A stretch of 64,000 bases of DNA from Dictyostelium discoideum (taxonomy: Eukaryota), in NCBI GenBank assembly GCA_000004695.1, contig CM000151.3, positions 7,968,001 through 8,032,000 on the forward strand, read 5' to 3'. This document shows positions 21,159-63,387 of this stretch, in pieces. The notes beneath the pieces were generated by a model. The model saw nothing but the letters and a program-made list of their open reading frames with translations. It made no database searches and was not told where the DNA came from. Each line of letters begins with the position of its first letter. Position 1 is the first letter of the stretch. A program made the position numbers and the translations under genes.

Positions 21159-24100
21159 ATGTCATCATCATTATCATTAGCATATAATAATAATAGTAGT
21201 ATACCATCATCTGTATTATTACAACAACAACAACAACAACAGCAACAACAACAACAGCAACAACAACAACCAACTTCATCAGGATATTCACAACAATGTC
21301 TAGTACCAGATATATTCAAATTTTCAGCTAAAGTACAATTAGCTGAAACCATCAGTTACTTAACACCAGTACCGGTTGAAAGTGTTGAAATTTTAATTAA
21401 ATCATGTTGTTCATTATTACCAAATAAACAATATATTGATATTCAACAAAACGATCCATCAATTAAAAGAATTTTCGATTTAAATCCATCATTATTTTCA
21501 ACAATGATTGTAAGTTTTTAAATAAATAAATGTATTATTATTTAAATAATCAAATTTACTAATTTTCATTATTATGACTATTAAAGAGTATTCGAGCACA
21601 AGAATCAGTTATTGCACTATCACATTTTTATAAATGTTCAAATGGTAATGCAGATAAGAGAATTTTACCAATTTTAAAATCATTTTTAGTGTATTTAACA
21701 TATTTTGGTAATAATAGTGGTAGTAGTGGTAATCAATTGAACCAATCTTCACAATCAAATAGTAGTGTAACTCAACAATCACAAATATTTTCACAATCTA
21801 ATGGATTATCAGTACCAGTTGGTATTCATCAAAATGATATTCAAAATTCACAAAATTTCACCTATTATCTATTGAATCAATTAGCAATATTATCCCATAT
21901 TTCCACTGAAGCTAGTGATGAAATTGTACCAGTTTTCTTGGATTTCTTTAATCAAATTATAAAGAATGAGCAAGTTTCAATCATCTATGGTACACTTCAT
22001 GCATTGGCTGATAAAAATAATACTTTTAATTTCAATAATGATCAATTATCAAAAGTAATTAATTCAATTGAATTAATTGTTGAAAATAATTCAAATACAA
22101 AATATAATCAAAAAAAAGTTTGTATTATTAAAATATATTATTATTTTTTATTTTGAATATAAAATATTAATTTTTTTTTTTTTTTTTTTTTTTCCCTTCC
22201 CTTTAGATTCTTTTATTAGTTTGTCAAGCATTTGAAAGAATTACATATTTAAATGAATTAGAAAAGGATGTAACTAGAATTTATAGAAATGTATTCCCAT
22301 TCACTACATCTTCAATTGCATCAACTGATAATGAAGCATTTGTATCTATTATTGTAAGTATTCTCTTACTTTTCCCCACACACCAGTTTCATAATAGTAA
22401 TAATTATTTTTTTTATTTTTTAGAATGTTATTAGAAGATGTGGTATTTTAGAAGAAAATATTGGTAAAGAAGTTTTAGATTATTGTATTAGATTTATTTC
22501 AGAGATAAAGAGTTTAACTGATAGTGAATGTTCAGTATTATTAAGTAAACCATTCACAGAACAACTTTATCAATCAATTTTTACATCATTGGTTGAAATG
22601 ACAGATAAGTATCCTGAAAAGTTATTAAAGGTAATTGAAGTATTAAAAGATTTCCTTTGTGTTTCACCAGTGATTAAGAATAGTGAAGAGACTAGAAATT
22701 CATTATTCACTTGTATTTGCAACATTTTAACAAATGAATATAAAAAAGAAAGAGGTGTTGAAAATTGTAAATCAATCGTTACATCATTCTTAAATACATT
22801 ACATACATTATATACAGGTTATTTAAATGATAATCTCAATAGTAATGGCATAACACAACAAATTTCATCAACAAATACAACACCATCATCCTCATCAACT
22901 TTAACAACATCAAATAGTAATAATAATACAAATTCAAAATCACCAAATTTAAATAGTGCAAATATAAATTCAAATAATAATAATAATAATAATGGTATTC
23001 AAATTCAATCATTAAAAAATATAATAATTATAATTGGTAAAATTACATGTTCATTAAATGATTTAGGTATTATTGAAATTACGAAATCAAATTTCATTAG
23101 TAGATTAGCTTTTCCACCAAGTGAAATTGATAATTTAATATTATTTCAATTGACAGATATTGGTTTATTGGAACATCCAATTATAACAGATTCAATTGTT
23201 GCAATGATTACAAGTTTATTTAAAAAGATTTGTAAAGATTCTAATCAAGGTTTAATTACAAATATTACCGATATAGCATTACAAAAATTGGCAAAACATT
23301 TAGTTAATGAGAAATTACGTCTAGATTTATGTAGAAAGATTTTAAAACTTTTCCAACAGCTAGGTAAAAGTTTTAGAAGGGGTGATAATAGTAATTTTTC
23401 AAATACAAATGGTGGTGGTGGTGGAGGTGGTGGTAATTTCAATAGTAATTATAATAATATGGATCCAAATTATTTATCATCACCAATTTTAAAAGGTATG
23501 GGATTCTTATTACCAACAATAGCAGAGTTAATTAGAACTATACCAATTAGAACATTGGATAGTTCAAATTCTGTGGTTTTTAATGCAGTTGTACCACCTA
23601 CTGGAATCAATAGTGATGGAGAGGAGTTGTTCAATTTAAATAGTGCCTCTGATGTTAAGCTTTATAGATCGGTTTGGTTCTATTGTGTTTTCTTTAAATT
23701 CTCAATTCAAGGTATATGGAGAAGTGATTGGTGGCTAAGTGTTCAAATGATAGCTGCACATTTATCACCATTGATTTCAAATAAACCTCATAACTACTTG
23801 GAAATGGAGGTTGAATTGGATAGTATTATTAAACAAGGCCTTGAAAAGGACTACTTTTACAATGTTAAACAATCATTGGTTGAACAATTACCAAACTATA
23901 CTGCCTATATAAAGAATTTAACATTGGCTCAATTGGGATTCATTCATTCGGTTTACATATTGGAGACTATGAGATTCGCTGTGTCTGGCTCATTCGAATT
24001 GGCATTTGGTTATTTGGAAGATCAAGGTATTGAAAACATTAATGTATCATCTTGTATTCGTGCAATTGTCGATAAGGTATTCGCAGATTTCCTAACTGGC

Positions 24101-27100
24101 TACGCTCCAATCTCGACAACACCAATCGCAGAATATGAGTTATCACTCCATGCCGCTTTCCTTTTGGTCAAATTTTGTTATCCACACGAACCAGTGCGTA
24201 AGGCTGCCGATGATTATATCTCAACATTGGTCACTAAATTCCCACAAGTTTTATGGAGTAAACATTGTCTTTCAACACTATTGGATCTAATTGAAGCCAT
24301 TGGTAAAGGCGCAAAAGCAAAACCAATGGATATGATTTCAGTTAGATTAACTCATTCACATCTATTGATTGAATTACCCGATGAAACACCAGTTCGTCAA
24401 CGTCTTTTACAAGATATCATAGCTTTGGGTAACATTTGGTTAAAGAGTGGTACCAATGCAGCACCCTCTGAAATCCAAGAATTACTTCAAGAGTATATGC
24501 AAAGATTTAATCAATTAAAACATCAACATATGGGTCTATCATTAGCCGTTGAAATTGGTTCGAATGCTGATTTAGCAGCCGATAAATTAATCTCAAATCA
24601 TGGTGCTGAAATTTTAACAAATCAAGCTGCAATCAATAATCAATCACAATTTAACAATCAATCTGGTGGTTTGGCAAGTTGTACAACTAGTAATGCTGCA
24701 AACTTTGTAAATTCATTACAATTAAAAGTACTCTATGGTGGTGAAATTAAAGGTATGTTACATATGATGAATGTTATGGATGAACGTGTTCAACAAAAGA
24801 AATTATTACAACAACAACAAAAACAACTTAATGGTGAAGACAATGATGATGACGACGACGACGATGATGAAGAAATTTCAGAAGAAATTGAAGATAGAGC
24901 ATATGATATTTTAGTTAAAGAATTTGAAAATTTAATTTCAAATGTTCATAAAAGTAATCATCCAGCAAATAATATGGCATTCATTTCAATTATGTATAGA
25001 TCATGTGCATTTTTAATTAATCATTACTTTGGTTCAAATGTACGTTTAATTCATATGATTTGTTATGCACCTGCTTATATTTTCACAAAAGAATCAATGG
25101 AGATTGGTGTTGGCTGTTGGAAATGGTTATTAGCTGAAAGACCTGATCTTTCAAAATTCATTATGACTTCAATTAGTGATATTTGGACATGGACAGTTAA
25201 TCAAAGAATTGGTCTTTTTGCAAATAATGAAAGAGAACCATCACCATTATCTATCTCTAGTCAACAAACTTCAATGGATAATAAACAAGTTAATGAAATT
25301 TTATCAACTTCACCAAATAATAATAATAATAATAATAATACCAATAATAATACCAATAATAATAATCCAATTATTAATGATCCTGAAGCAAGTACAACTG
25401 GTGGTTTTAATAAAGAAGATGAAAGAAATAAATATATTAGACAATTTAAACCACCAAAATCAATTGATAAAACTAGTGATGTTCCTCATAAGATTTGGTT
25501 AGATTTCTTAGAAGAAAGATTCACTGTCTCTAGATATAGCTCACAAGATCAAATGGATATTATTGTTGGTATCATTCAAAAATCAGTTATGGATCCAGAT
25601 GGTCTTAGTGTTTCACCAAAGAGTTTAGGTTCACGTTTCAAATTATTGTTATTGGCAATGAAGTTAATTCAAGGTGATTTTGTTCGTGATGCTTTTAATA
25701 CTCGTTTAATGCGTGAAAGAGTTTATTTAGCTTCCCTAAGTTGGTTTTATTTAGCACCAGTTTGGTATGGTCCTGCTGAAGCTGGCTCACAAGCTCAATT
25801 AGAAATTGATACAAAAACATTGATTGAATATTGTAAGACACTTCAAGCTGAAACTATCTTTCAATTTATGGATAAACGTTATACATTCATTCAAAGTACT
25901 GGTAGTGGTAGTGGTAGTACAACTGGTAGTTTAAGAAGTGGTGTTAGTGGTGTTGGTGGTGGTGTTGGTGGTAATAGTGGTATTTCAAATGGTGGTATTG
26001 CAAATGGTGTTTCAACCAATAATAATGTTGGTAATATTAATAATAATAATAGTAATTTAAATCTTGGATCAAATTCAGTATTACTACCAAATGGTAATTA
26101 TCAACCATCAACCTATGCAACTATTAGAGGTAGTAAAATGTTACAACAATTAGCTAATGGTAGTATTGGTATTCCAATGGATCAATCAAATGGTTCAATA
26201 TCATCTTCATCATCAGTAAGTGGTTTAACACAAAGTTTATCATCAACCTCGTTATATGGTGGATTTAGTATGCATAATTATGGTAGTGGTATTGGTGTTG
26301 GTATAAGTCCAAATAATTTCGCACCAACAACATCAAATAATCCTTACTCTTCAGTGGTTCGTAATTCATCAACATTAAAACAAATTAATGAATCATCATC
26401 AGTATCATCATTTGATTTAATGAATTATGGTGGTGGTGGATTGGAAAGTACAAGAAGTATGTTAGATATTGCAGGTGGTGGTGTTGGTACAATGACATCA
26501 GTTGCAGGTCAACAAATTTCTCAAGCATTATTATTGGATTCAATAGCAGGTGGTAATTTAAATAAACCAGTTGTAAGTGAAGCACATTTAATTGAGTTAA
26601 GAAAGAGAAGAAATTTAATACTTTTATTGGTTGGTAATGAATTGGAGAGAATGTCAGCATGGAATTCACCAGTTAGTCGTATCTCTACACAAATTCCAGA
26701 ACAAACTAAATTTGTCTATGAAAATTTACCAAAATCAATGAAATTGAAATGGAAAGATTATTTAATCTCTGCATGGAAAATCAATCCAAAATTGGCCATT
26801 CATTTTAGTTCTCGTTTCCCTCATTCAAAGATTAAGAGTTTATTAAGTGAAATGGTGGTAAAGAATACTAAAGCAGTTTTAGACATTCCAGAGGCATTAC
26901 CATTTTTAGTGACTGAAGAGAATGTCAAGGCCAATATACCAGAGTTAAAGTATCTTTTATATTGGGAAACTGTTACACCACCTATGGCAATTTCATTATT
27001 GGGAAAACAATATCATTCTCATCCATTGGTTTCACAGTATGCATGTCGTGTACTTCGTTCATTCCCACCTGAAACCATCATGTTTTACATTCCACAATTA

Positions 27101-28777
27101 ACTCAAGCATTACGTTACGATAGATCGGGTCAAGTTGAGAACTATTTGGTTCAAGCATCTAAAACCTCTGAACTTTTAGCTCATCAAATCATTTGGAATG
27201 TTCAAACCTACACTGAAAGCGATCCAAATGGTCGTATGGCACCTATCGATGATCCAATCATTCAAAATGTTGCAAAACGTTTGAAAGATCGTGTCATTGA
27301 AGAAATGCAAACTCAAGATAAAGTCTATCAAAATTATCGTGAAGAATTTGAATTCTTTGAATCATTCACTTCAATCTCTGGTCGTTTACTTCAACTTAAA
27401 GATCCATCAAAGAGAAAAGGTCAATTGAGAGATGAATTGAAAATGTTATCAGTTTCAAGTAATCATTCACCATTGTATATGCCAACCAATCCAAAATCAT
27501 TAGTTGTTGGTTTAGAAGTTGATTCTGCAATGACACTTCAATCCGCTGCAAAAGTACCAATTCTTGTAAACTTTAAAGTCATTGAAAGAAATTTACCAAC
27601 TCCTTCATCAAGTATCTCAAATGTTAAATCACCACCACCAAGTAGTTCACCAATTGAAACAACTTCATCAGTTGCTCCAACTGGTACTTCATCAATTCAT
27701 TCTTCATCATCTTCAACTTTATTACCAATACCATTACCAATTAATGGTAGTAGTAATAATATTATTAATAGTAGTAATAATAATAATAAAAATATTACTG
27801 TATCACCATTAAAATCATCAAGTGGATCTGCAATGGGACCACCACCATCACAACAACAACAACCACCATTATTAGGTAGTACAAATCCATTATTAAGAGA
27901 AAGTACAAGACAACTTAGAAAGAATGTAAATAAAAAACCACAAGAAAATAAGGATACTGAAGCAAATAATAATAAAGTTCATATTCAAGGTTGTATCTTT
28001 AAATCTGGTGATGATATTAGACAAGATATGTTGGCACTTCAAATCATTGATATCTTTAAACGTATTTTCAAATATGTTGGATTGGATCTATATTTATTCC
28101 CATACAAAGTAATTGCAACTAAACCAGGTTGTGGTATGATTGAATTGGTACCTAATACAATGTCACGTGATCAAATTGGTAAAAAAGTTAATGGTAATCT
28201 TTACAATTATTTCATTAGTAAATATGGTAATAAAAATTCAATCGGTTTCCAAAATGCTCGTAGAAATTTCATTAAATCGATGGCTGCCTATTCTGTGGTA
28301 AGTTATATCCTTCAAATTAAAGATCGTCACAATGCAAACATTTTAGTCGACGAGGAGGGTCATATCGTTCATATCGATTTCGGTTTCATTTTCGATATCT
28401 CTCCAGGTGGTGAATTGTTAACATTTGAAGCTTCCCCATTCAAGATGAATCAAGAAATGATCGATATTATGGGTGGTAAACCAAATGCTGAACAATTTGT
28501 TTGGTTTATGGAACAATCAGTACGTGCTTTCTTGGCTGCTAGACAACATATGGATAGTATCATCACCTTGGTCGAACTAATGTTGGATACCAAATTACCA
28601 TGTTTCCGTGAACAAACCATTTATAATCTTCGTCAAAGATTCTGTCCAAATAAGAGTGAAACTATTGCTGCTAAATTTATGAGTAAAATCGTTTTAGATT
28701 CTTTCTCAACAATTAGTACTTTCTCTACATATTTCTATGATGTTTTCCAATATTATGATAATGGTATTGAAATGTAA
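21159..28777 (+). CDS. Phosphatidylinositol 4-kinase III alpha (PI4KA/STT4 ortholog), about 2460 aa. Exons are 21159..21509, 21587..22117, 22207..22353 and 22424..28777.
   Basis: C-terminal catalytic domain '[62 protein letters not shown]...AAYSVVSYILQIKDRHNANILVDEEGHIVHIDFGFIFDISPGGELLTFEASPFKMNQEMIDIMGG...VELMLDTKLPCFREQTIYNLRQRFCP' matches human PI4KA '[62 protein letters not shown]...[52 protein letters not shown]...LPCFRGQTIKLLKHRF'. The helical/PIK accessory regions also match ('VDKVFADFL...FLLVKFCYPHEPVRKAADDYISTLVTKFPQVLWS', 'FPPETIMFYIPQLTQALRYDRSGQVENYLVQASKTSELLAHQIIWN'). Three small 5' introns (GTAAGT or GTTTGT ... AG, 77-89 bp) join in frame to the 6.2-kb terminal exon. The frame was verified at every junction. 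Confidence 0.9.
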
Positions 28778-33156: not shown

Positions 33157-35005
33157 TTATTCTTGACCTTCTGGAACTGAAGAACCTCTCATACCTTTAC
33201 CAGCTTTAATAATTTCATCGATGAGGAGTAATTGAGAAGCGATAACAGGTGAAGAACGATAAACTTGTTTTAATACAGAATATTGATCGAAAATACCTTC
33301 ACTTACTGGATCCATTGGTTCACCTGATTCAACATCTAAACCGACGATATGACCCTTGGCGTATTCCTCTTGTAATTTAATGATGGTATCCATTGGATCG
33401 AAACCAGAGTTTTGAGCCAAAGTTTTTGGAACTACCAAAAGAGCATCGGCGAATGCTTGAATACCCAATTTGGTACGACCAGTGATAGTTTCTTTGAATT
33501 TCATTAAATCAGCATAAGCGGCGATTTGGAAAGCACCACCACCTGGTACAACACATTTATCTTCGATTGTGTTCTTAACGGCACGTAAACCGTCACGAAG
33601 GGCGTCTTTAATTTGTTCGATTTGATGCTTGGTTGGACCTTTAATTAAAACGGTACAAGAGAATGGATTCTTTACACCCTCAACAAATGTATATTTCTCT
33701 TCACCCAAGGTTTGTTCATAAACTAAATCTGCATGACCTAAACAATCTGGTGTTAAATCTTCCAATGAATTCATTGCTGTACCACCACATGCCAATGTTA
33801 AACGCTCCATATTTCTACGTTTGGCACGACGTAAACCCATTATACCTGCTTTTGCTAACATATCCAAACAAATTGGATCAATACCTTTTTGATTGATAAC
33901 AACGAAATTCTTATCTGGTGTATCACAAACATGATTCTTTAACTCTATAATTTGTCTACATTTTGCTGCAACTAATTTATGTTCACCATCAATCATTCTT
34001 GATCTAGTTTCATGATCTTTATATAAAAAGTTTGCATTAACTTCACTTTTTTTTTTTAAAAAAAAAAATAAAAAGTATTAGTAATGTTTATGTAGTATGT
34101 ATGTGTGTGTTTTTAATATTAATAATTGATTAAATATAAATATGTATAACATACGTTTTTTCATATTCTAAAGAAACATTACAAGTTAAAATGAAACAAT
34201 TTGTTAATTTCTTTGGCATATCAGGATGACGTGTACCATGATCTAAAACCAAACCTTTGATTAATGAACAATGACCATCGGTTCTATGTTGCATAGTCAT
34301 AATTTCAACCATGAATAAATCTAATGGTTGTTCAGGTTTATGAATTAATAAGAGAGCATCAACGACTTGTTCAGTTAATTGATCAGCTAAATCTGCTGGT
34401 AATTTAGTTCTTAATGATGTTTTTGCAATTGAAATCAATAATTCTCTATCCAATGTATCTTGTGAGGTTTGTTTGAATTCCTCTAAAAATGCTAAACAAC
34501 GATCTTTTGCTAATTCAAAACCTTCTGCAATAATTCTTGGATGAATATTCTCTTGTAAATAACGTTCTGATTGTTTTAATAATTCACCAATTGTAATAAC
34601 ATTAGTTGTTGTACCATCACCAGTAATATCATCTTGTGCTGTTGCTGTACGTGCAATTAATGCTGCTGTTGGATGTTGAATTTGCTTTTTTTTAAAAAAA
34701 AAAAATAAAAAAATAAAAATAATAAATAAATAAATAATATTAATATTAAATTTTTTTTTTTTTTTTTTTTTTTTTTTATATATTAAATTTTTAAAATAAC
34801 ATACCATTTCATGTAATAAAACTTTACCATCTTTAGTTAATTTAATATCACCACCACCACCAACTAACATTTTGAGTGTACCTCTTGGTCCTAAATTGGT
34901 TTTTAAGACATTTTGTAAACCTTTACCTGCTGAAATATTGAGCAACAATGCTTGACCTCTTCTAGAGTCTGCTGCTGCTCCTTGTTGTTTAATCATACTC
35001 AACAT
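33157..35005 (-). CDS. cct6: T-complex protein 1 subunit zeta (CCT6 chaperonin subunit), about 539 aa. Exons are 35005..34805, 34684..34155 and 34045..33157.
   Basis: '[47 protein letters not shown]|[57 protein letters not shown]...' is about 70% identical to human CCT6A '[104 protein letters not shown]'. Downstream '[18 protein letters not shown]...[39 protein letters not shown]' matches '[18 protein letters not shown]...[39 protein letters not shown]'. The introns are GTATGT...AG (120 bp and 109 bp), and the coordinates were checked against the in-frame ORF track. Confidence 0.92.
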
Positions 35006-37049: not shown

Positions 37050-37415
37050 ATGTCACAAATTACAAATTTTATTAATAACCAATCAAATGATAATAATAAT
37101 AATAATAATAACAATAATATTAATACCAATAATAAAAGTGGAAATCTTTTATCCTTATCGAAGGAATCATCAATTTTGTTAATTATTCATTCAACTTCAT
37201 CTCCTGTAAATTATTTATCCCAAATAAATAATTCAAATAATTCAAATAATTCAAATAATTCAAACAATTCAAATAATTCTAATAATTTTAATAATAATAG
37301 TAATAATAATAATATTAATAATAATAATATAAATAATAACTATAATGCGAATAATAATAATAATAATATAAACAATAGTAATAGTAATAACAATATAAAT
37401 AATAATAACAACAAT

Positions 37416-37487
<72 letters not shown>

Positions 37488-37776
37488 TATAATAATATAA
37501 ACAACAATCAACAAAATAATCAATTACAACAACAAAAAATTAATAATACGAGTAGTGATAATATAAGTAATTTGATAACATCATTAAGTAATAATATAAA
37601 TAATTCAAATAATAAATATAATGGATCAACACCACCTTTTTCATCACCAAAATTAAATTCAACCAATACAACACCAAACTCAACACCTCCAAGTTTATCT
37701 TCATCACCATTAAACACATCAACCAATAGCCTTCAATTGCTATCAACAATGAGTCAACAGATTCAACAACAAATTC

Positions 37777-37817
<41 letters not shown>

Positions 37818-38684
37818 ACTCAACAACAACAACAAACTCAACCAAAATTACCAATTAATAATAATAATATTGATACATTAAAAACAAATCAATGTAAAAT
37901 TACAGATTGTATTGTTTGTGAAAATGGACCACCACCAAGTTTTGAAAAAGGTCAAGTACCAATTTGGGCACAAATTTTACATGTTGCATTATTTGCATTA
38001 ACAGAGTCATCAAAAATCACACAAAATAGATCACCAAATCAATTGGATGATAATTTAACACATGGAAAACGTTATTTTCATCTAAGAGATGATATATATG
38101 AATTTATAAATGTTCATTGGGATTTAATTTGTAAAAGAGAAAGAATTCAAAACTGGAAACATACAATTGGTATGACATTATCCCATTATCAAAATTTATT
38201 CCAAAATGGTTATCCAATCTTTCAAAACACTGGTTATTGGTGTTTGAAAGATGATGCTCCAAATCCATACACTTCTGATTTTATGGATAATTCAAGAAAA
38301 AGAAAATATTCTACAAAATTATCAAAAAAAAATAAACAATTACAACAACAACAATTACAACAACAACAACAACAACAATCACTACAACAATTAAATAATA
38401 GTAGTAGTAGTAGTAGTAGTGATGAAGATGAACTACAACAACTACAACAACTACAACAACAACCTAATAAAAGGTTAAATTCCTCACCTTCTTATGGCTC
38501 ACCATTAATACATGGAATGGAATCATTATTAAATTCAAACTCCTCATCACCATTAAGGTCTTTAACACCAAATCTAAGCTCATGTGGTTCACCACTTCAA
38601 TTGGCAATTACAAATAATAATCATAACAATGTAAATTATAATAATACTCTTAATAATAATAATAATAGTAATAATAATAGTAAC

Positions 38685-38745
<61 letters not shown>

Positions 38746-39029
38746 GTAATAATAATGGTAATAATAATAATATTAATAATAATGGTAATAATAATAGTGG
38801 TGGTGGTGGTAGCAGTAATTTTAGTATTGGTGGTTTATTGTCAAATGATGAAAGCGATATCAATATTAATAGTAACAATAATAATAACAATACATATTAT
38901 GAAAAATTTAAATGTATGGAAAAGGAATTGGATGATTGCAAAAACGAAGTAAGAGAATTACAAGATGAAATTTGTTTATTGCAAAATGAATTAAAAAATA
39001 ATAATCAACAACAACAACAAATTGTTTGA
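37050..39029 (+). CDS. Asn/Gln-rich nuclear-type protein (659 aa) with one globular domain (residues ~295-420). I read the domain as a divergent forkhead-like winged helix, followed by a C-terminal coiled coil (ELDDCKNEVRELQDEICLLQNELK).
   Basis: A single ORF, about 75% low-complexity N/Q/S. In the domain, 'VPIWAQILHVALFAL' fits FOX helix 1 (PPYSYI.LI.MAI). 'DDIYEFINVHWDLICKRERIQNWKHTIGMTLSHYQNLF' fits '[34 protein letters not shown]'. 'QNTGYWCLKDDAP' fits 'GKGSYWTLDPDS', and a basic tail 'SRKRKYSTKLSKKNK' follows. The assignment is by eye only. Confidence 0.7.
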
Positions 39030-40206: not shown

Positions 40207-42029
40207 ATGGTTGGATTTGAAGATCATATCGCAGCTATCACAAGAAACTATCAAGTTAACCCACGTTTAGATTATAGAACTGTTACAGCAGTAAATGGTC
40301 CACTCGTTATTTTAGATAATATCAGAGGTCCAAAATTCTCTGAAATTGTAACTTTAACTTTAGGTGATGGTACTCAAAGAAAAGGTCAAGTTTTGGAAAT
40401 CCAAGGTAAAAGAGCTGTTGTACAAGTATGTATTTAATTAATTTTAAAAAAAAAAAATAATAATATAATTTTTTTAAAAAAAAAAAAAAAAAAACCACAG
40501 ATTTTTTTATTTTTTTTAAATTTTACTTTTTACTTCTTTCTTATTTTTCATTTTATTATTTTTTATTTTTAATTTTAATGAATTAATTTACTAATAAATT
40601 TTTTTTTTTTTTTTTTTTTTTATTTTTTAAAAAAAAAATCAAAAAGGTTTTCGAAGGTACAATTGGTATTGATGCCAAACACACTCGTTGTGAATTCTCT
40701 GGTGATATTTTAAAGATGCCAGTATCAGAAGATTCATTAGGTCGTATTTTCAATGGTTCAGGTAAACCAGTTGATAAAGGTCCAAATGTTTTAGCTGAAG
40801 AATACTTAGATATTCAAGGTCAACCAATCAATCCATCAGTTAGAGTTTACCCACAAGAAATGATTCAAACTGGTATCTCTGCTATTGATACTATGAATTC
40901 AATTGCTCGTGGTCAAAAGATTCCAATTTTCTCTGCTGCAGGTTTACCACACAATGAAGTAAGTATAATAAAAATTATATACACAATCATACATGCATAT
41001 ATATAAAATCGCAAATAATAAAAATTAATTTATTAATTTAATTTTTATTTATTTATTTTTTTTTTTTTTTAATAATAGATTGCCGCTCAAATTTGTCGTC
41101 AAGCTGGTTTAGTTAAAAAATCAGGTAAAGGTGTTATTGATGATCATGAAGATAATTTTGCTATTGTATTCGCAGCTATGGGTGTTAATATGGAAACTGC
41201 ATCATTTTTCAAACGTGATTTCGAAGAATCAGGTTCTATGGATAGAACTGCTCTCTTCCTTAATTTAGCAGATCATCCAACCATCGAACGTATTATTACT
41301 CCACGTCTTGCATTGACCACCGCCGAATATCTTGCATATCAATGTGAAAAACACGTTTTAGTTCTTTTAACCGATATGTCTTCATATGCTGATGCTCTTC
41401 GTGAGGTATCTGCTGCTCGTGAAGAAGTACCAGGTCGTCGTGGTTATCCAGGTTATATGTATACAGATCTTTCAACCATTTACGAACGTGCTGGTCGTAT
41501 TCAAGGTCGTAATGGTTCTATCACTCAAATTCCAATTTTGACTATGCCAAATGATGATATTACCCATCCAATTCCAGATTTAACTGGTTACATTACTGAA
41601 GGTCAAATTTTCATTGATCGTCAAATCAATAACAGACAAATCTACCCACCAATCAATGTATTACCATCACTTTCTCGTCTTATGAAATCCGCCATTGGTG
41701 ACGACATGACCCGTGGCGATCACTCTGAAGTCTCAAATCAAATGTATGCCAACTATGCCATCGGTAAAGATGTCCAAGCTATGAAAGCTGTCGTTGGTGA
41801 GGAAGCACTTTCTTCTGAAGATAAACTCTACTTAGAATTTTTAGAACGTTTCGAATCTAGCTTTGTCGGTCAAAACCATTATGAAAATCGTGATATCTTT
41901 AATTCATTGGATCTTGGTTGGTCTTTATTAAGAACTTTCCCAAGCAATCTCCTCAAACGTATCACTGAAAAAACTATTAAACAATACTATTCACGTTCAT
42001 CAAAGGGTACTGTAGATTCAACTAACTAA
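40207..42029 (+). CDS. vatB: Vacuolar H+-ATPase subunit B, 493 aa. Exons are 40207..40425, 40647..40958 and 41079..42029.
   Basis: '[73 protein letters not shown]|VFEGTIGID...[29 protein letters not shown]...[32 protein letters not shown]|[12 protein letters not shown]...[108 protein letters not shown]' is a near-universal V-ATPase B sequence. The introns are GTATGT...AG (221 bp) and GTAAGT...AG (120 bp). The frames were verified. Confidence 0.95.
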
Positions 42030-42616: not shown

Positions 42617-44183
42617 CTACAAAGCCATATTTTTTATTCCACCTTCAATTTGAGAAGCAGTACAAATTTGTTTGGTAAAGAAATTTTGGTGTTTATGTTG
42701 GTGTTGATATTGTAATTGTTCTTGTTGTAGCTGAAATTGCATTTTTTGAATTTTAAATTGTTCGAGTTGGATTTGATATTCTTTCTCTGATTCATCAAAT
42801 TCATTATTATTATTATCATTATTATTATTATGTTGTTCTAAATATTGTTGTTTTTGTTGATGTAACATTTGTTGTTTTTCTTGTTGTTGTTGAGGTTGTT
42901 GTTTCAATTCTATAAAATTTGGTTGTTGCATTTTTTGTTGTAATTGGTTTTGTCTTAATTTTTGTTTTTCTTTTTGAATGATTAAAACTTTTTCTTTTTC
43001 AGCCAATAAATTTTTTAAGGTTTCAATTTCATTTTCAAAGTCATCAATTTCTATGACACCATATTTAATCAATGGATGTTCTAATAATTGTTCAGCAGAA
43101 GGTCTTACGGAAGGATCAGGATGAATCATTGATTTAATTAATTGCCAAAATTCTGTTGAGAAATCATTCTTATTATCATCGTATATTGAATCTTCCTTTT
43201 CAAATGATAGTATACCATTTCTAATTGAGTCCCATTCCATGCCAGACTTTGGTAATGGTTTACATCTTGCCAATTCATATAAGGTACAACCCAATGAAAA
43301 GATATCACTTTTTTTCAAAGCAGACATATCGTCGTGTAATAATTCTCTTGATAAGTATCTACTATCACCTTCTGAATAGATTTTTGTATTGGTTGCTTCA
43401 TTTAATAAACCCAAATCACCAATTTTAAATGTTATACTATTAAAATTAATTTTATTACCATCAATTATTAAATAATTATTTTGATTATTATTATTTTGAT
43501 TATCTACATTATTATTATTATTATTATTACAATTGTTATTATTTACACTATTTGTTGTTGTTATAAAGTTATCAAGATCATTTTCAGTTGTTTTAATTTT
43601 ACTTTTGAAATAACTATCACTACCATTACTACTATTATTAATGGAGCAAGTATTGTTATTATTAGTGATGATTTGATTTTGATTACATTTATAAATTATA
43701 TATATATTTTCAGGTTTAATATCTAAATGAACTAAACCCAAAGAATGAATATAAACAATACCGGTAAGGATTTGTTTTGCCAATAAGAGTAAATTTGATT
43801 CGGATTGTTTAATATGTTCAGTTACCCATTTATAAATATTACCACCATTACAATGTTCCATTTGAATGAATATATGACTATCTTCTTCCCAAGCATTAAA
43901 ATATCTAACGATATTGGTATGATCTTTAATTGCAGATAAACCATAAACTTCCCTCAATACTATATCACGATCTTTTTGACCTTTTAATGGTTTTTTGGTT
44001 TTCTTTATTGCATATAGACATCCATCAATTCTATGTCTAACCTTATAAACATGACCAAAACTACCCTCACCAATTAAATCCAATTCTTGAAAAGTATGTT
44101 TATATAATGAAAATTTAGTTATTAAATTATTATCAATATTTTGTGAATTATTATTATTATTATTACAGGTATCGTCATTATTA

Positions 44184-44223
<40 letters not shown>

Positions 44224-44853
44224 CATTATTATTATTACTGGCATTATTATTATTGTTATTATTATTTACAAGTTGAAATGAAGGACATGGTTTATTCAAT
44301 GATTGCAATCTACCCTCTTCTGTAAAAGGATTAACATTTGCAATTAGGGATGATATAGAATTTGGACCATTGTTATTGTTATTGTTATTATTTACATTAT
44401 TATTATTAGCATTATTATTATTGTTATTATTTACATTTGAAGTCATTGAAGTTGACCTTTTTCTATTTGTTCTTTCTTCAGCCAATCTTATAAAAACTGG
44501 TTCAAATTTTGGAGAGGAATAATTATTTCTTTTTAATGATGGTGTTGGAGGTGGTGATGGTGTTGGTGACATTGAGAAAGAGTTTTCATTGAATGCCCTT
44601 TGATCGGGTCTTACTCTTTTTACCTCTGTTGATGGAAAGGTATTTCCTTTGTTATAACTACCATTCGATAGGAATCTACTATGATTTCCAGTAATATTAT
44701 TTATATTATGTCCATTCATCATTGAACCATTTGCTGACCATGATACTGGTGATGTTGGTAATGATGATGAAAATATTTGATCCTCTTCATTATTATTATT
44801 ATTATTATAATTATTATTGATATTATTGATATTATTATTATTGATATTATTGA

Positions 44854-44893
<40 letters not shown>

Positions 44894-45018
44894 TAAATTA
44901 TTATATATTCTATTATTATTTATTGGTCTTATATTCATACTATTTGTTGAACTATTATTAATAAATGATAAAGGTGTAAATGATGGAACTTTAAATTCAT
45001 TTGTTTGTTGTGATTGTG

Positions 45019-45049
<31 letters not shown>

Positions 45050-45203
45050 AGAGGATGGAGATGAATATAAAATTGGACTTGAAGGAAACATATTTGTTTT
45101 AGTTGATGATAGAGATGCTGAAGCTGGATAAATTGGTTGGTCGTCATTATCATCATGAAATAGTCTTCTGCCTTTTCTTAAATGATGATGATGGCTATTA
45201 TTA

Positions 45204-45265
<62 letters not shown>

Positions 45266-45613
45266 GCTACCACTAATTGGTATACTATTACTATTATTTA
45301 AATGATGCACTATATTATTATTGGTATTATTATTATTATTGTTATTAGTTGGAGAAGAATCACAGTCACTTTGTGTTGGAGAGGATGATTGTTGTTGTTG
45401 TTGTTGTTTTTGATCTTCACAATTTGAAAGTTCACTTAAAAGTAGTGTATTGAATGAATTTTGTTGATCCTTTGATTCTTCATAAGATGACATATGTATA
45501 AACTCTCGATTTTGATCAAAATCATCATCATCGTCATCATCGTCATAAGAGAAAAGTGTGGTTCTTTTCTTGGTGATATATTTTTTTTTTTCTGATTGAG
45601 ATGGAAAATCCAT
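42617..45613 (-). CDS. Wee1-family tyrosine kinase (Wee1/Myt1-like), 998 aa. It is a single exon with long poly-Asn and poly-Gln tracts N-terminal to the catalytic domain, and a C-terminal Gln-rich coiled region.
   Basis: Catalytic domain 'FQELDLIGEGSFGHVYKVRHRIDGCLYAIKKTKKPLKGQKDRDIVLREVYGLSAIKDHTNIVRYFNAWEEDSHIFIQMEHCNGGNIYKW...GLVHLDIKPENIYI...FKIGDLGLLNEATNTKIYSEGDSRYLSRELLHDDMSALKKSDIFSLGCTLYELARCKPLPKSGMEWDSIRNGILSF...LIKSMIHPDPSVRPSAEQLLEHPLI'. The 'EGDSR(F/Y)L(A/S)(N/R)E(V/L)L', 'LPRNGDQWHEIRQG'-like and 'MIHPDP..RPSA' motifs are diagnostic for Wee1 rather than other kinases. Confidence 0.88.
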
Positions 45614-53039: not shown

Positions 53040-58455
<5,416 letters not shown>

Positions 58456-59685: not shown

Positions 59686-62600
59686 ATGACAAGTTCTGAT
59701 AGTAGTGTAAATACTACATCGAGTAGTTTCGGAAATATTTCAATATCATCACCAAATCATAGTAGTTCAACACCACCTTTAAATAATGGAAATGGTAATA
59801 ATGTTAGTGCATCAGAAACTGAATTAAAGAAACATGTTTTATACTCTTTACAATGTTTAGATGAAAAAACTTTAACTTTAAAAGTGAAATTGGATCATTT
59901 AAATAAACTAGTAGAATTAAAGAAATCAATACCAGATTTAAATAAATTAGGAATATCACCAACACAATTATATAAAAGGTAATTTAATTTTAAAATTTAA
60001 TTAATTAATTAATTATTATAAATTTATAAACTAATCATCATTTTTTTTTTTTATTTTTTTTATTTATTTTAGTGTAAGACCATTTATAGCATTACCACCA
60101 AAAACAATTAGAACAGCAGGATTAAGAGTAATGAGATATTATTTAAGTAATTCAAATAATGTTAAAGAATTATTAGATTTAAAAGTACAATATTTTATAA
60201 CACGTTCATTGGAACGTGATAAACATTCAGAACCTGAAAGAATTCAAGCATTAAAAATCATACGTACAATTATGGAAATTGATTGTTCATTAATGCCACA
60301 TTGCTTTGTGAAAGGTTTAGTATCAATTGCAGAGAATCAAGAGGATAATTTCTGTAGAGTTTGTCTTGAATGTCTAACAGAGATCTCAATTCGTAATCCA
60401 CAAATTTCATCACATTGTGGTGGTATTCGTACTGTTTTCGATGCGGTTTTGGATCCATTCTATCAAGGTATTCAAGAATCCCTTTTAATTTGTATATTAT
60501 ATTTATTAAGTGATAAAGATACTAGAATTTATATTAGACCAAAATCTGATTTAGAAGTAAGTTGATTTTTTAAAATAAAATAAAATAAAAAAACAAAAAC
60601 AAAAATTCCAATTATTAACATATATTATTTTAAATAATATCAATAAAGATTATATTAGCACCATTAACAAATTCATTTAATATTGGTGTTAAATTAAAAG
60701 GTGCAAGTAAAGAAAAAGAAAAAGAAAAAGAAAAAGAAGATGAAGTTGCAATGAAAAAATGGACAGCAAGTTCAAAAGCTGTTTTAACATTAATTAAAAG
60801 TTGGATTGGTATTATATCTTTAAATTCTGATGATCAAGGTTTAAAATCTGTAGTTGATACATTAAGAATGCCACAAATTGAATTACAAGTAAGTTTTTTA
60901 TTACAATTTATTTATTTTTATTTATTTATTTATATATTAATTTTTATTTCTTTAAAGGAAAAAGCTTTAGATTCAATTTTTGAAATTTTTAGAGTACAAT
61001 TACCAAAAAGTATTCAAGAAACATTTGGACCACAAAAAGCAACACAAACATTTAATTTTGGATCAGAGACATTACAAGATTTACCAAGTAGAACTAGATC
61101 ATTAAGACATAATCTATTGAATAATTATTTATCGGTATTGTTGATAGCATTTATTGATAATGGACTAATTGAGGGATTGGTTTATTTGGGTAATTATGTT
61201 GCCAATAGGGATGGTATGAGTGAGCAAGAGAAAGAATGTTCAAAGAATATCTCATTAAAGAGTACAGTATTATTGGCGGAACTATTACATATGTCAAATG
61301 CATTATTACCACCATCACAATGTGCAAAATTACAAACACTACCATCATTGGTGAATTCTGCAATTTCGTTTAGATTAGACCCAAGATTAAGATCATCTTC
61401 AAATACCATGGTAACCAATTTACATAGTTATTCACATAACAAATCAAGTACAACCCTAATGGATAGCACATTGGCAATTGGATTAACTGGTGCCAATAAA
61501 TGGCGTCGTATTAAAGGTCAAGATCGTAGATTGGATAAGGTTGATGATGTGAAAATGAAGATGGAGTGGCATATGGACGATAACCAATTTCAACAGAAAA
61601 TCAAGGACACTCAAGTACTCGTCACTAAAGATTACCAAAAATGGTCATGGGAATTAATGTTTGAATTGTTGGAAGGACCTTTGAACAATCCTCAACATTT
61701 ATCAAATACATTGAAAACCAAATTCATTAAAAGAATCTTATCATTTCTACGTCCAAATAAGAAACTATTCTCAACAATGGCTTGGACAACTGAAAATTTA
61801 AAATATGTTCGTACTGCTTGTGTAGCATTGGAAGTTTTAATCTCTCATGAAATTGGTTTCGATTTTCTTAAAGATAATAAAACTATAATTCAAATCGCCG
61901 ATATGTTAAAAGTGGAATTAGATTATAATATTAAACCACCACCATCATCATCCTCATCATCAGAAAATAAAAAAGATAATGTACGTTTATTGAATCCAGA
62001 AAAAGTTTTAAAAACAATGTCTCGTGAATACTTTACAATGTTGGGTACATTGAGTAGTAATTTATTAGGTTTGGAAATATTAGCACGTAATAACATTTTC
62101 GATTATATTAAACCATTGGCTGAATTGCCTGGTAGGGATGATCTTTCTCATTTAATTATGACAAGCTTGGATTACAATGTTAATGGTGCCTCCAGAACGA
62201 TTCTTCAAAAGATTTTAACTTCAAGTTCAAGAGTAGTACGTTATTTGGCAACCAAGTATTTAAGATTCCTTTTAAGATCTGGTGTACAAGATTTCTCAAA
62301 TTGGGGTGTAGAGTTATTAGTTCAACAATTGAATGATGTGGATGCAAAAGTTAGTGCACTATCATTGAATGTATTGGATGAGGCATGTGATGATCCATCA
62401 TGTTTGGAAGTTTTAATAGATTTGAAACCAAATCTATTGAAATTGGGTAAACCTGGTAAATCATTGTTATTACGTTTCTTATCCTCTCCAAAAGGTTTAG
62501 AGAATCTATTACAAAATAATGGTTTCGTTGAACAAGAAGAACAACTATGGATTACAAGTGAAAATGCAACCTATGTAAATGCAATAGAATCGGCAGTCTC

Positions 62601-63387
62601 TGAATCATTATCACCAAGTGTTTGGAGATTTAAAGAAGCACCTGATGGTAGTAGTACTAGTGGTGTCTATTTACCACCACATTTCTTTGGTGAATTAGCA
62701 AAAACTGAAAAAGGTTGTCAATTAATTAGAAAATCAAATAACTATCAAAGATTTTTAAAAATCATTCAAGATCCAACCGCTAAACAATTGGATAAAAGAG
62801 CATCGTTAATCGCAATTGGTCATATTGGTTCTTCTGTCGATGGTTATTCATTCGTTAAAGAAAGTGATACAATCAAACTATTGATTGGAATAGCAGAGAA
62901 ATCTCAATGTTTGGCATTACGTAGTACTTGTTTCTATGCTTTGGGTATGATTTCATGTATTGAAGAAGCTCAACCAATCTTTAATTCCTTTGGTTGGGAA
63001 TCACCATCAGATTTAAACTCTAGAATCTTGTTACCAAAGGATTTAAAGAATTCAACTTTCCTAAGTGTACCACAATATCAATATCAAGGTAGTTGGGCTG
63101 ATCATTCATTTGAAACTTTACCATCAAATCATTTCTCTGATCCAATTAAAAATGAAATCATTTCTTTTGTTGGTAATTTATCTTCACATATCACTGCTGA
63201 AGGTGCTTCAAAGAATTTAAAACGTTTAAAAATCAAATATCCTGATCATTTTGCAACAAGTGAAATTTTAAATGCAGTTTTCATTTTATTAAATACTTTT
63301 AAATATCGTTTAGGTGCTAGAAGATTCATTTATGATTTATTTGATGTTGCAATATTTTCATCTGATCCATATCATGATTTAAATTAA
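59686..63387 (+). CDS. piaA: Pianissimo (Rictor ortholog, TORC2 subunit), 1148 aa. Exons are 59686..59978, 60073..60556, 60649..60888 and 60958..63387.
   Basis: 'QYFITRSLERDKHSEPERIQALKIIRTIMEIDCSLMPHCFVKGLVSIAENQEDNFCRVCLECLTEISIRNPQISSHCGGIRTVFDAVLDPFYQGIQESLLICILYLLSDKDTRIYIRPKSDLE' matches the human RICTOR conserved block 'LRLLLHSRFRLEREKLQEVRVQAFKLMRKIMEVNASLFPSSVTNSLIAVGNDGLQERDRMVRACIAIICELALQNPEVVALRGGLNTILKNVIDCQLSRINEALITTILHLLNHPKTRQYVRADVELE'. The introns are GTAATT/GTAAGT...AG (94, 92 and 69 bp) with the frames verified. The summed exon length of 3447 nt gives 1148 codons, which matches the length I recall for Dictyostelium Pianissimo. The human sequence is quoted from memory. 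Confidence 0.93.

Follow-up and report, generated by a model that had tools for sequence, protein, structure and literature searches.

A single-exon open reading frame (ORF) in a 64,000-nucleotide stretch of the Dictyostelium discoideum genome (contig CM000151.3, forward-strand positions 7,968,001 to 8,032,000; hereafter the window, in whose own numbering all positions are given) encodes an asparagine- and glutamine-rich (N/Q-rich) protein of 659 amino acids (aa). Its sole folded domain, at aa ~282-407, is probably a winged helix of the type found in ASH2L and in the Polycomb-like (PCL) proteins, joined to the remnant of a PHD finger, and the protein is likely to be a nuclear regulator that binds DNA or chromatin. 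An earlier note, made from the letters alone, had read this segment as a divergent forkhead (FOX) domain; it belongs, with a confidence that we consider high, to the ASH2L/PCL-type ('forkhead-like') winged helices and not to the true FOX domains. The parts of the gene concerned are the following.

37050..39029, + strand: single-exon ORF, 659 aa, N/Q-rich protein (coordinates include the stop codon)
37893..37937, + strand: Cys element CKITDCIVCENGPPP, C282-x4-C287-x2-C290, aa 282-296, a putative zinc knuckle and all that is left of a PHD finger, namely its last zinc-binding pair
37965..38270, + strand: winged-helix core, aa 306-407, with the order H1-S1-H2-H3-S2-W1-S3 plus a conserved NPY
Core elements (aa): H1 306-325; insert 326-337; S1 343-344; H2 345-361; H3 369-379; S2 384-386; W1 387-395; S3 396-399; conserved NPY 405-407
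38025-38060, + strand: dictyostelid-specific acidic insert SKITQNRSPNQLDDNLTH in the H1-S1 loop, aa 326-337, of variable length
38154..38186, + strand: helix 3, WKHTIGMTLSH, aa 369-379, counterpart of the FOX recognition helix
38295..38336, + strand: basic tail RKRKYSTKLSKKNK, aa 416-429, which may serve as a nuclear localisation signal and/or an accessory DNA contact

Fold and Conservation of the Domain

AlphaFold2, run without templates on a family alignment of 53 non-redundant domain sequences, gave a model with a mean pLDDT of 88.7 and a pTM of 0.84, in which the forkhead-like topology H1-S1-H2-H3-S2-W1-S3, named in the earlier note as the feature to be looked for, is present and a short helix directly follows C287. 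The domain is the only non-repetitive, strongly conserved block of the protein, in agreement with its description as the only globular segment: N/Q-rich low complexity lies on both sides of it, with an N+Q fraction of up to 0.9 per 30-aa window, and extends throughout the 659 aa apart from aa ~282-430 and a few short blocks. A Pfam scan of the full-length protein (E ≤ 10) returned no domain besides the winged helix. All strings quoted in the earlier note (VPIWAQILHVALFAL, DDIYEFI, QNWKHTIGMTLSHYQNLF, TGYWCLKDDAP and the basic tail) were recovered from the ORF, and the interval that it assigned to the domain, 37940-38300 (aa 298-417), covers the winged helix but misses the conserved Cys element upstream.

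Across seven dictyostelid sequences, 48 positions are invariant. Helix 3 is near-invariant among the dictyostelid orthologues and falls into classes that follow the branches of the family, namely WHKQIQDMLSH, WRQTVNMTLSH (in proteins fused to a homeodomain) and WKHTIGMTLSH (in the branch of the D. discoideum protein). Such constancy among orthologues, combined with differences between branches, is the pattern expected of a specificity-determining surface. The acidic insert, modeled with low confidence (pLDDT ~59), is absent from most other family members and contributes much to the unusually low isoelectric point (pI) of the domain.

Relationship to ASH2L, Polycomb-like and FOX Domains

The placement of the domain rests mainly on a profile of the 53 aligned sequences, which was searched against all PDB sequences with the following results.

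MTF2: E 4.5e-12, profile positions 8-112, covering the last CxxC of PHD2 and the 'extended homology' winged helix
Drosophila Pcl: E 1e-11, profile positions 8-112
PHF1: E 6.6e-11 to 2.9e-10, profile positions 7-111/112
ASH2L: E 7e-10, profile positions 7-91
FOXM1: E 3.8e-5, profile positions 33-109
FOXN1: E 0.0035, profile positions 51-109
About twenty other FOX entries: E 0.011-0.27

Both in profile-level homology and in fold, the match to the ASH2L and PCL winged helices of known structure is significant, and FOX domains are not the nearest relatives by sequence or by structure. When the 53 relatives are scanned singly against Pfam, 46 match ASH2L-like_WH (PF21198; E ≤ 0.01, best 4.7e-8) and four match Forkhead (E ≤ 0.01, best 2.5e-5), and the PF21198 gathering score of 25 bits is reached by four of the ten full-length relatives scanned (P0012, P0026, P0031 and P0059, at 25.1-30.6 bits; P numbers designate family members). 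To judge from these matches, the family forms a link between the ASH2L-like_WH and Forkhead profiles. The suggestion that the segment might define a new winged-helix subfamily comes nearer the truth than the forkhead assignment, although the parent Pfam family already exists. The term 'forkhead-like' is itself applied to the ASH2L winged helix in the titles of structural papers cited in PMC9440282.

Regarding the FOX domains, hhalign paired the family alignment with a FOXM1 domain sequence at 93% probability and with FOXA3 at 64.5%. The likeness lies in the common H1-S1-H2-H3-S2-W1-S3 order and, in register, in D-I-Y-x-[FW]-I of helix 2, W-K-x-[ST]-I-x-x-x-L-S of helix 3 and [FY]-W of strand 3. 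Profile search, hhalign and the AlphaFold2 model thus uphold the view of a winged helix with forkhead-like topology that is remotely homologous to FOX, and the resemblance is genuine. The motif-by-motif alignment of the earlier note agrees with the hhalign register at helix 2, helix 3 and the wing, but the similarity of the single sequence on which it was built is not significant: BLASTP against the FOXM1 domain gave E 0.36 in a wrong register. From the single sequence, phmmer against PDB sequences gave only a weak MTF2 match (E 0.25) amid noise. No Forkhead match (PF00250, gathering score 27 bits) was returned by hmmscan at E ≤ 10, either for the full protein or for a 161-aa piece containing the domain. 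In FOX proteins helix 3 bears the recognition motif W-x-N-S-I-R-H-N-L-S, the Asn, Arg and His of which contact bases. The hhalign pairing of WKHTIGMTLSH with WKNSIRHNLSL of FOXM1 replaces Asn by His, Arg by Gly and His by Met, keeping only W, I, L and S; the substitutions given earlier as K-H-T-I-G versus N-S-I-R-H were displaced by one residue, the aligned pairs being H-T-I-G-M versus N-S-I-R-H.

A Cysteine Element in Place of the PHD Finger

The three cysteines C282, C287 and C290 span nucleotides 37893-37919, and the PDB search with the family profile places the CxxC-G-P stretch opposite the Cys pair that closes PHD2 in MTF2, Pcl and PHF1. The element is modeled with a pLDDT of 85-95, with a short helix at model residues 11-15. 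Conservation, counted on 101 sequences, is complete for C287 and C290 and nearly so for H356 (100), H379 (95) and C282 (93), while C361 is kept in 74. Of 100 relatives with a full-length domain, 98 show no PHD pattern over the 70 residues upstream, and most have only one or two Cys there. The position aligned with H356 holds Asn in MTF2 and PHF1, both of which have a full PHD, and Tyr in the fungal relative P0071; it is presumably also Tyr in human ASH2L.

The module of PHD2 and 'extended homology' winged helix in the PCL proteins (PHF1, MTF2, PHF19 and Drosophila Pcl) is a close known system. Compared with it, the D. discoideum protein lacks the Tudor domain, PHD1 and the N-terminal three quarters of PHD2, with poly-N/Q upstream instead; its helix 3 is conserved and non-acidic, and a putative C-terminal coiled coil is added. 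Compared with ASH2L, the first PHD Cys pair is missing and has apparently been replaced by C282 and H356. The PHD finger, which ASH2L and PCL keep complete, thus appears to be reduced to its last Cys pair. C287 and C290 would represent this pair. With C282 as an additional ligand, and with the near-invariant His356 of helix 2 as the probable fourth, they could make up a small zinc knuckle of Cys3-His type that caps the winged helix, and this candidate knuckle may have replaced the PHD finger.

Family and Taxonomic Spread

The family came to light when 1.84 billion representative proteins were searched exhaustively with phmmer; 240 relatives were obtained at E ≤ 1e-3, of which 53 reached E ≤ 1e-10, the matches usually running from the Cys element to the wing. 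A word-indexed protein search returned one fragment from the single sequence and 17 mostly fungal fragments from the profile. All members with a named source are amoebozoan. They occur in the Dictyostelia (Dictyostelium purpureum, Acytostelium subglobosum, Tieghemostelium lacteum, Cavenderia fasciculata, Heterostelium album, Polysphondylium violaceum and Synstelium polycarpum) and in other Amoebozoa (Ceratiomyxa fruticulosa, Filamoeba sp. and Arcella intermedia), and many further matches come from unlabeled metatranscriptomes. The search for orthologues in dictyostelids called for by the earlier note found members in other dictyostelids as well as the D. purpureum orthologue F0ZWF5 (P0003), recognized by N- and C-terminal blocks in common; F0ZWG2, encoded on the 41.6-kb contig that also holds F0ZWF5, is a paralogue. 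Several paralogues with quite different flanks are found per dictyostelid species.

In one branch the Cys-knuckle winged helix is joined to a C-terminal homeodomain (P0026, P0031, P0033, P0035 and P0053, from Tieghemostelium, Ceratiomyxa, Synstelium and Heterostelium). The homeodomain is recognized by Pfam at 23-26 bits, helix 3 of the branch reads W[RK]QTVNMTLSH, and the annotation in Tieghemostelium and Heterostelium is 'putative homeobox transcription factor'; such fusions would carry two DNA-binding domains. Two metatranscriptome members, P0010 and P0011, have an extra conserved N-terminal block (...TLKDL..SVL..GEE..FKG...) and long C-terminal coiled coils.

More distant relatives are proteins of Mucoromycota in which an intact PHD finger precedes the winged helix. 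The closest relatives with a complete PHD are in this group (Cokeromyces recurvatus XP_051381097.1, here P0071, and fragments from Circinella, Umbelopsis and Phycomyces); P0071 is found from the single D. discoideum sequence at E 2e-9, and P0151-P0153 match PF21198. Unlike the D. discoideum protein, they have a full C4HC3-type PHD upstream and a helix 3 of the form W-N-N-T-I-A-S-V-L-S-T, and P0071 has a C-terminal GNAT acetyltransferase domain. The PHD-winged helix-acetyltransferase architecture of C. recurvatus is apparently uncharacterized. Since many of the fungal matches (among P0151-P0165) are short fragments, their gene models may be split by introns.

Among the names considered for the family was GbfA-like (G-box binding factor), an amoebozoan-specific family listed in PMC6873476; it was dropped as none of 13 named dictyostelid relatives is so named, the comparison being one of names.

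DNA Binding and Alternative Explanations

Binding of DNA by the winged helix is, on present sequence evidence, somewhat favored. The PCL winged helix binds DNA (PMC9122586), and ASH2L papers cited in PMC9440282 describe, in their titles, a DNA-binding domain. The backbone contacts Lys269-Tyr270 of PHF1 align with the invariant Arg-Tyr of KRYF (by our own count of the residue numbers), the domains of the family are basic, with a median pI of 8.9 and 82 of 101 above pI 8, and the partner domain in the paralogues, a homeodomain, was also counted toward DNA binding. It can be hypothesized that the protein would touch DNA with helix 3, the conserved Arg-Tyr and the basic tail next to the domain, that a heptad repeat near the C-terminus would pair it into a dimer and that its N/Q-rich tracts would provide flexibility or activation. 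Whereas the domain family, the fold, the pattern of conservation, the architecture and the taxonomic range are shown by the analysis, the binding of zinc and of DNA, the dimerisation and the nuclear role are all inferred.

Several observations weigh against the proposed regulator. Scored alone, the D. discoideum protein reaches only 19.5 bits against ASH2L-like_WH (E 0.0012), below the cut-off of 25 bits, so that by the limit set in the earlier note (no Pfam or HHpred match to a forkhead or winged helix at E better than 1e-3) the single sequence is borderline. Its domain is near-neutral, with a pI of 6.6 and a net charge of -1, whereas FOX domains have a pI of ~9.7 and most relatives are basic. 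The wing-1 Lys-Lys pair that contacts CpG bases in PHF1 and MTF2 (K322/K323 of PHF1 in the numbering of PMC9122586) aligns with Phe and Gln, the correspondence having been carried over through the profile (PHF1 ...EIKKRKC..., profile ...ekfkqkG..., D. discoideum ...PIFQNTG...); the PCL binding mode is for this reason not transferable. The base-contacting Asn, Arg and His of FOX are absent from helix 3, and the amoebozoan members, save the homeodomain fusions, are annotated only as 'hypothetical' or 'uncharacterized'. The same near-neutral charge and the joint loss of the PCL wing lysines and the FOX helix-3 contacts would fit the main rival, a winged helix that binds no nucleic acid and acts instead as a scaffold or in protein-protein interaction, e.g., in a chromatin or other nuclear complex, and an invariant helix 3 would be equally in keeping with a surface for protein or for DNA. 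This alternative deserves consideration but is rather unlikely, given the basic character of most relatives, the retained backbone-contact Arg-Tyr, the basic tail adjoining the domain, the description of the nearest characterized homologues as DNA-binding and the homeodomain fusion of paralogues, which points to a DNA-proximal role.

The other explanations concern what the domain is. A divergent but bona fide FOX factor, the first in Dictyostelia and with the FOX mode of DNA binding by helix 3, is improbable in spite of the remote homology, because PF00250 failed, the helix-3 Asn, Arg and His are His, Gly and Met, and the N-terminal Cys element aligns with the PHD of PCL and ASH2L. The nearest solved structures and the nearest Pfam family, being those of ASH2L and PCL, could suggest instead an amoebozoan orthologue of Ash2 (a subunit of COMPASS/Set1) or of Polycomb-like (a PRC2 accessory) working inside those complexes, but this is more doubtful still: Pfam (E ≤ 10) shows no SPRY, Tudor or PHD in the full-length protein and signals the winged helix only, which is the ground on which orthology with either is denied. 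SPRY in particular is missing from the 659 aa by the same scan, the DPY30-binding motif not having been searched separately. The CpG-reading wing lysines of PCL are lacking as well, and several paralogues per species with different flanks would be unexpected for a single-copy complex subunit. As for a chance resemblance or a low-complexity artefact of AT-rich DNA with no true domain, the extreme N/Q repeats around the domain and the antisense ORFs produced by repeats (see below) invite such a suspicion, but it is refuted by the number of relatives at both thresholds, the invariant positions in dictyostelids and the confident fold, and can be regarded as having practically no chance of being right. 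A DNA- or chromatin-binding winged helix of ASH2L/PCL type with a PHD remnant is thus preferred. A stronger version can be put forward only tentatively, in which the family consists of Amoebozoa-wide, as yet uncatalogued sequence-specific transcription factors, whose DNA-binding domain is structurally new, a forkhead-like winged helix with a Cys3-His cap (made when the PHD was lost, from its remaining last Cys pair and the helix-2 His) and could mark a route by which FOX arose from PHD-winged-helix modules; this route is suggested because family members bridge the Pfam ASH2L-like_WH and Forkhead profiles.

Other Features of the Gene and Its Surroundings

Two further segments of the protein are conserved outside the domain.

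37146..37193, + strand: short N-terminal motif LLSLSKESSILLIIHS, aa 33-48, conserved in D. purpureum
38907..38993, + strand: C-terminal heptad-repeat segment FKCMEKELDDCKNEVRELQDEICLLQNEL, aa 620-648, four heptads, a putative dimerising coiled coil or leucine zipper

The N-terminal motif is identical or nearly so in the D. purpureum proteins P0003 and P0002 and is not alignable in distant dictyostelids, and the MSQ.. start and C-terminal blocks are shared with the orthologue P0003. In the best register of the heptad segment 79% of a/d positions are hydrophobic, as against 50% or less in the other six registers; the segment is kept in P0003, P0002, P0005 and P0007, and a sub-threshold match to the HALZ leucine zipper (E 4e-4) comes from the corresponding part of P0005. 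Regarding the basic tail, the 36 residues that contain it (aa 405-440) have a pI of 10.2, and a K/R-rich stretch is found at its position in the homologues P0002, P0004, P0005, P0006 and P0007.

Opposite aa 396-470 of the D. discoideum protein, the gene model of F0ZWF5 (P0003) runs from ...FQNTGY straight into low complexity, without wing strand 3 and the basic tail (WCLKDD...RKRKY); since these are kept by all other dictyostelid homologues, an intron has probably been mis-called in the public annotation. The two D. purpureum paralogues, P0002 (DICPUDRAFT_156391) and P0003 (DICPUDRAFT_156383), lie on one 41.6-kb contig with locus numbers 8 apart, and tblastn across the 64-kb window detected no second copy of the D. 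discoideum gene. Either a lineage-specific duplication or a second copy elsewhere in the genome would account for the difference.

The window is very AT-rich, with a GC content of 13-32% in 2-kb windows. Antisense ORFs of 84-104 aa at 37269-37523, 37540-37854 and 38636-38890 (- strand) consist of poly-Ile, poly-Val or poly-Leu codons; these are not genes but artefacts of reading frame, produced by the AAT/CAA codon repeats of the sense gene. Genes recognized among the neighboring ORFs are as follows.

22589-28777, + strand: PI4-kinase
33157-35005, - strand: TCP-1/CCT chaperonin subunit, in two ORFs, with an intron likely
41178-42029, + strand: V-type ATPase A/B subunit, C-terminal part
42617-45613, - strand: protein kinase
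53040-57629, - strand: large CCCH zinc-finger protein
60751-63387, + strand: RICTOR homologue

These neighbors are ordinary housekeeping and signaling genes, functionally unlinked to the winged-helix gene, and as a set they fit a dictyostelid nuclear genome.

Significance for Dictyostelium and for the Family

A published catalogue of dictyostelid transcription factors comprises 33 families and places FKH/Fox among those that were not detected in Dictyostelia (PMC6873476), which bears out the statement of the earlier note that Dictyostelium has been described as lacking forkhead factors. The further idea that a FOX domain here would bear on an origin of the family outside opisthokonts is relevant, but its premise is weakened, as Fox is already thought to predate the amoebozoan-opisthokont split (Sebe-Pedros 2011, as cited in PMC9828451). 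A literature search found no relevant paper on PF21198-type ('ASH2L-like') domains in amoebae.

The protein described here represents a widespread, unnamed and uncharacterized amoebozoan family with multiple paralogues, whose members are likely to be DNA-binding regulators. Its members provide sequences intermediate between the ASH2L/Polycomb-like winged helix and the FOX domain and in this way bear on the origin of FOX, without being proof of a FOX factor in Dictyostelium or of a FOX gene outside opisthokonts. The value of the finding lies in a set of candidate Dictyostelium regulators and in a possible minimal zinc-capped winged helix, which, if true, would exemplify the shrinking of a PHD finger to a small zinc cap. 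Should the domain prove to bind DNA, each species would have several more regulatory genes than are now counted, an addition to the repertoire of a major model organism.
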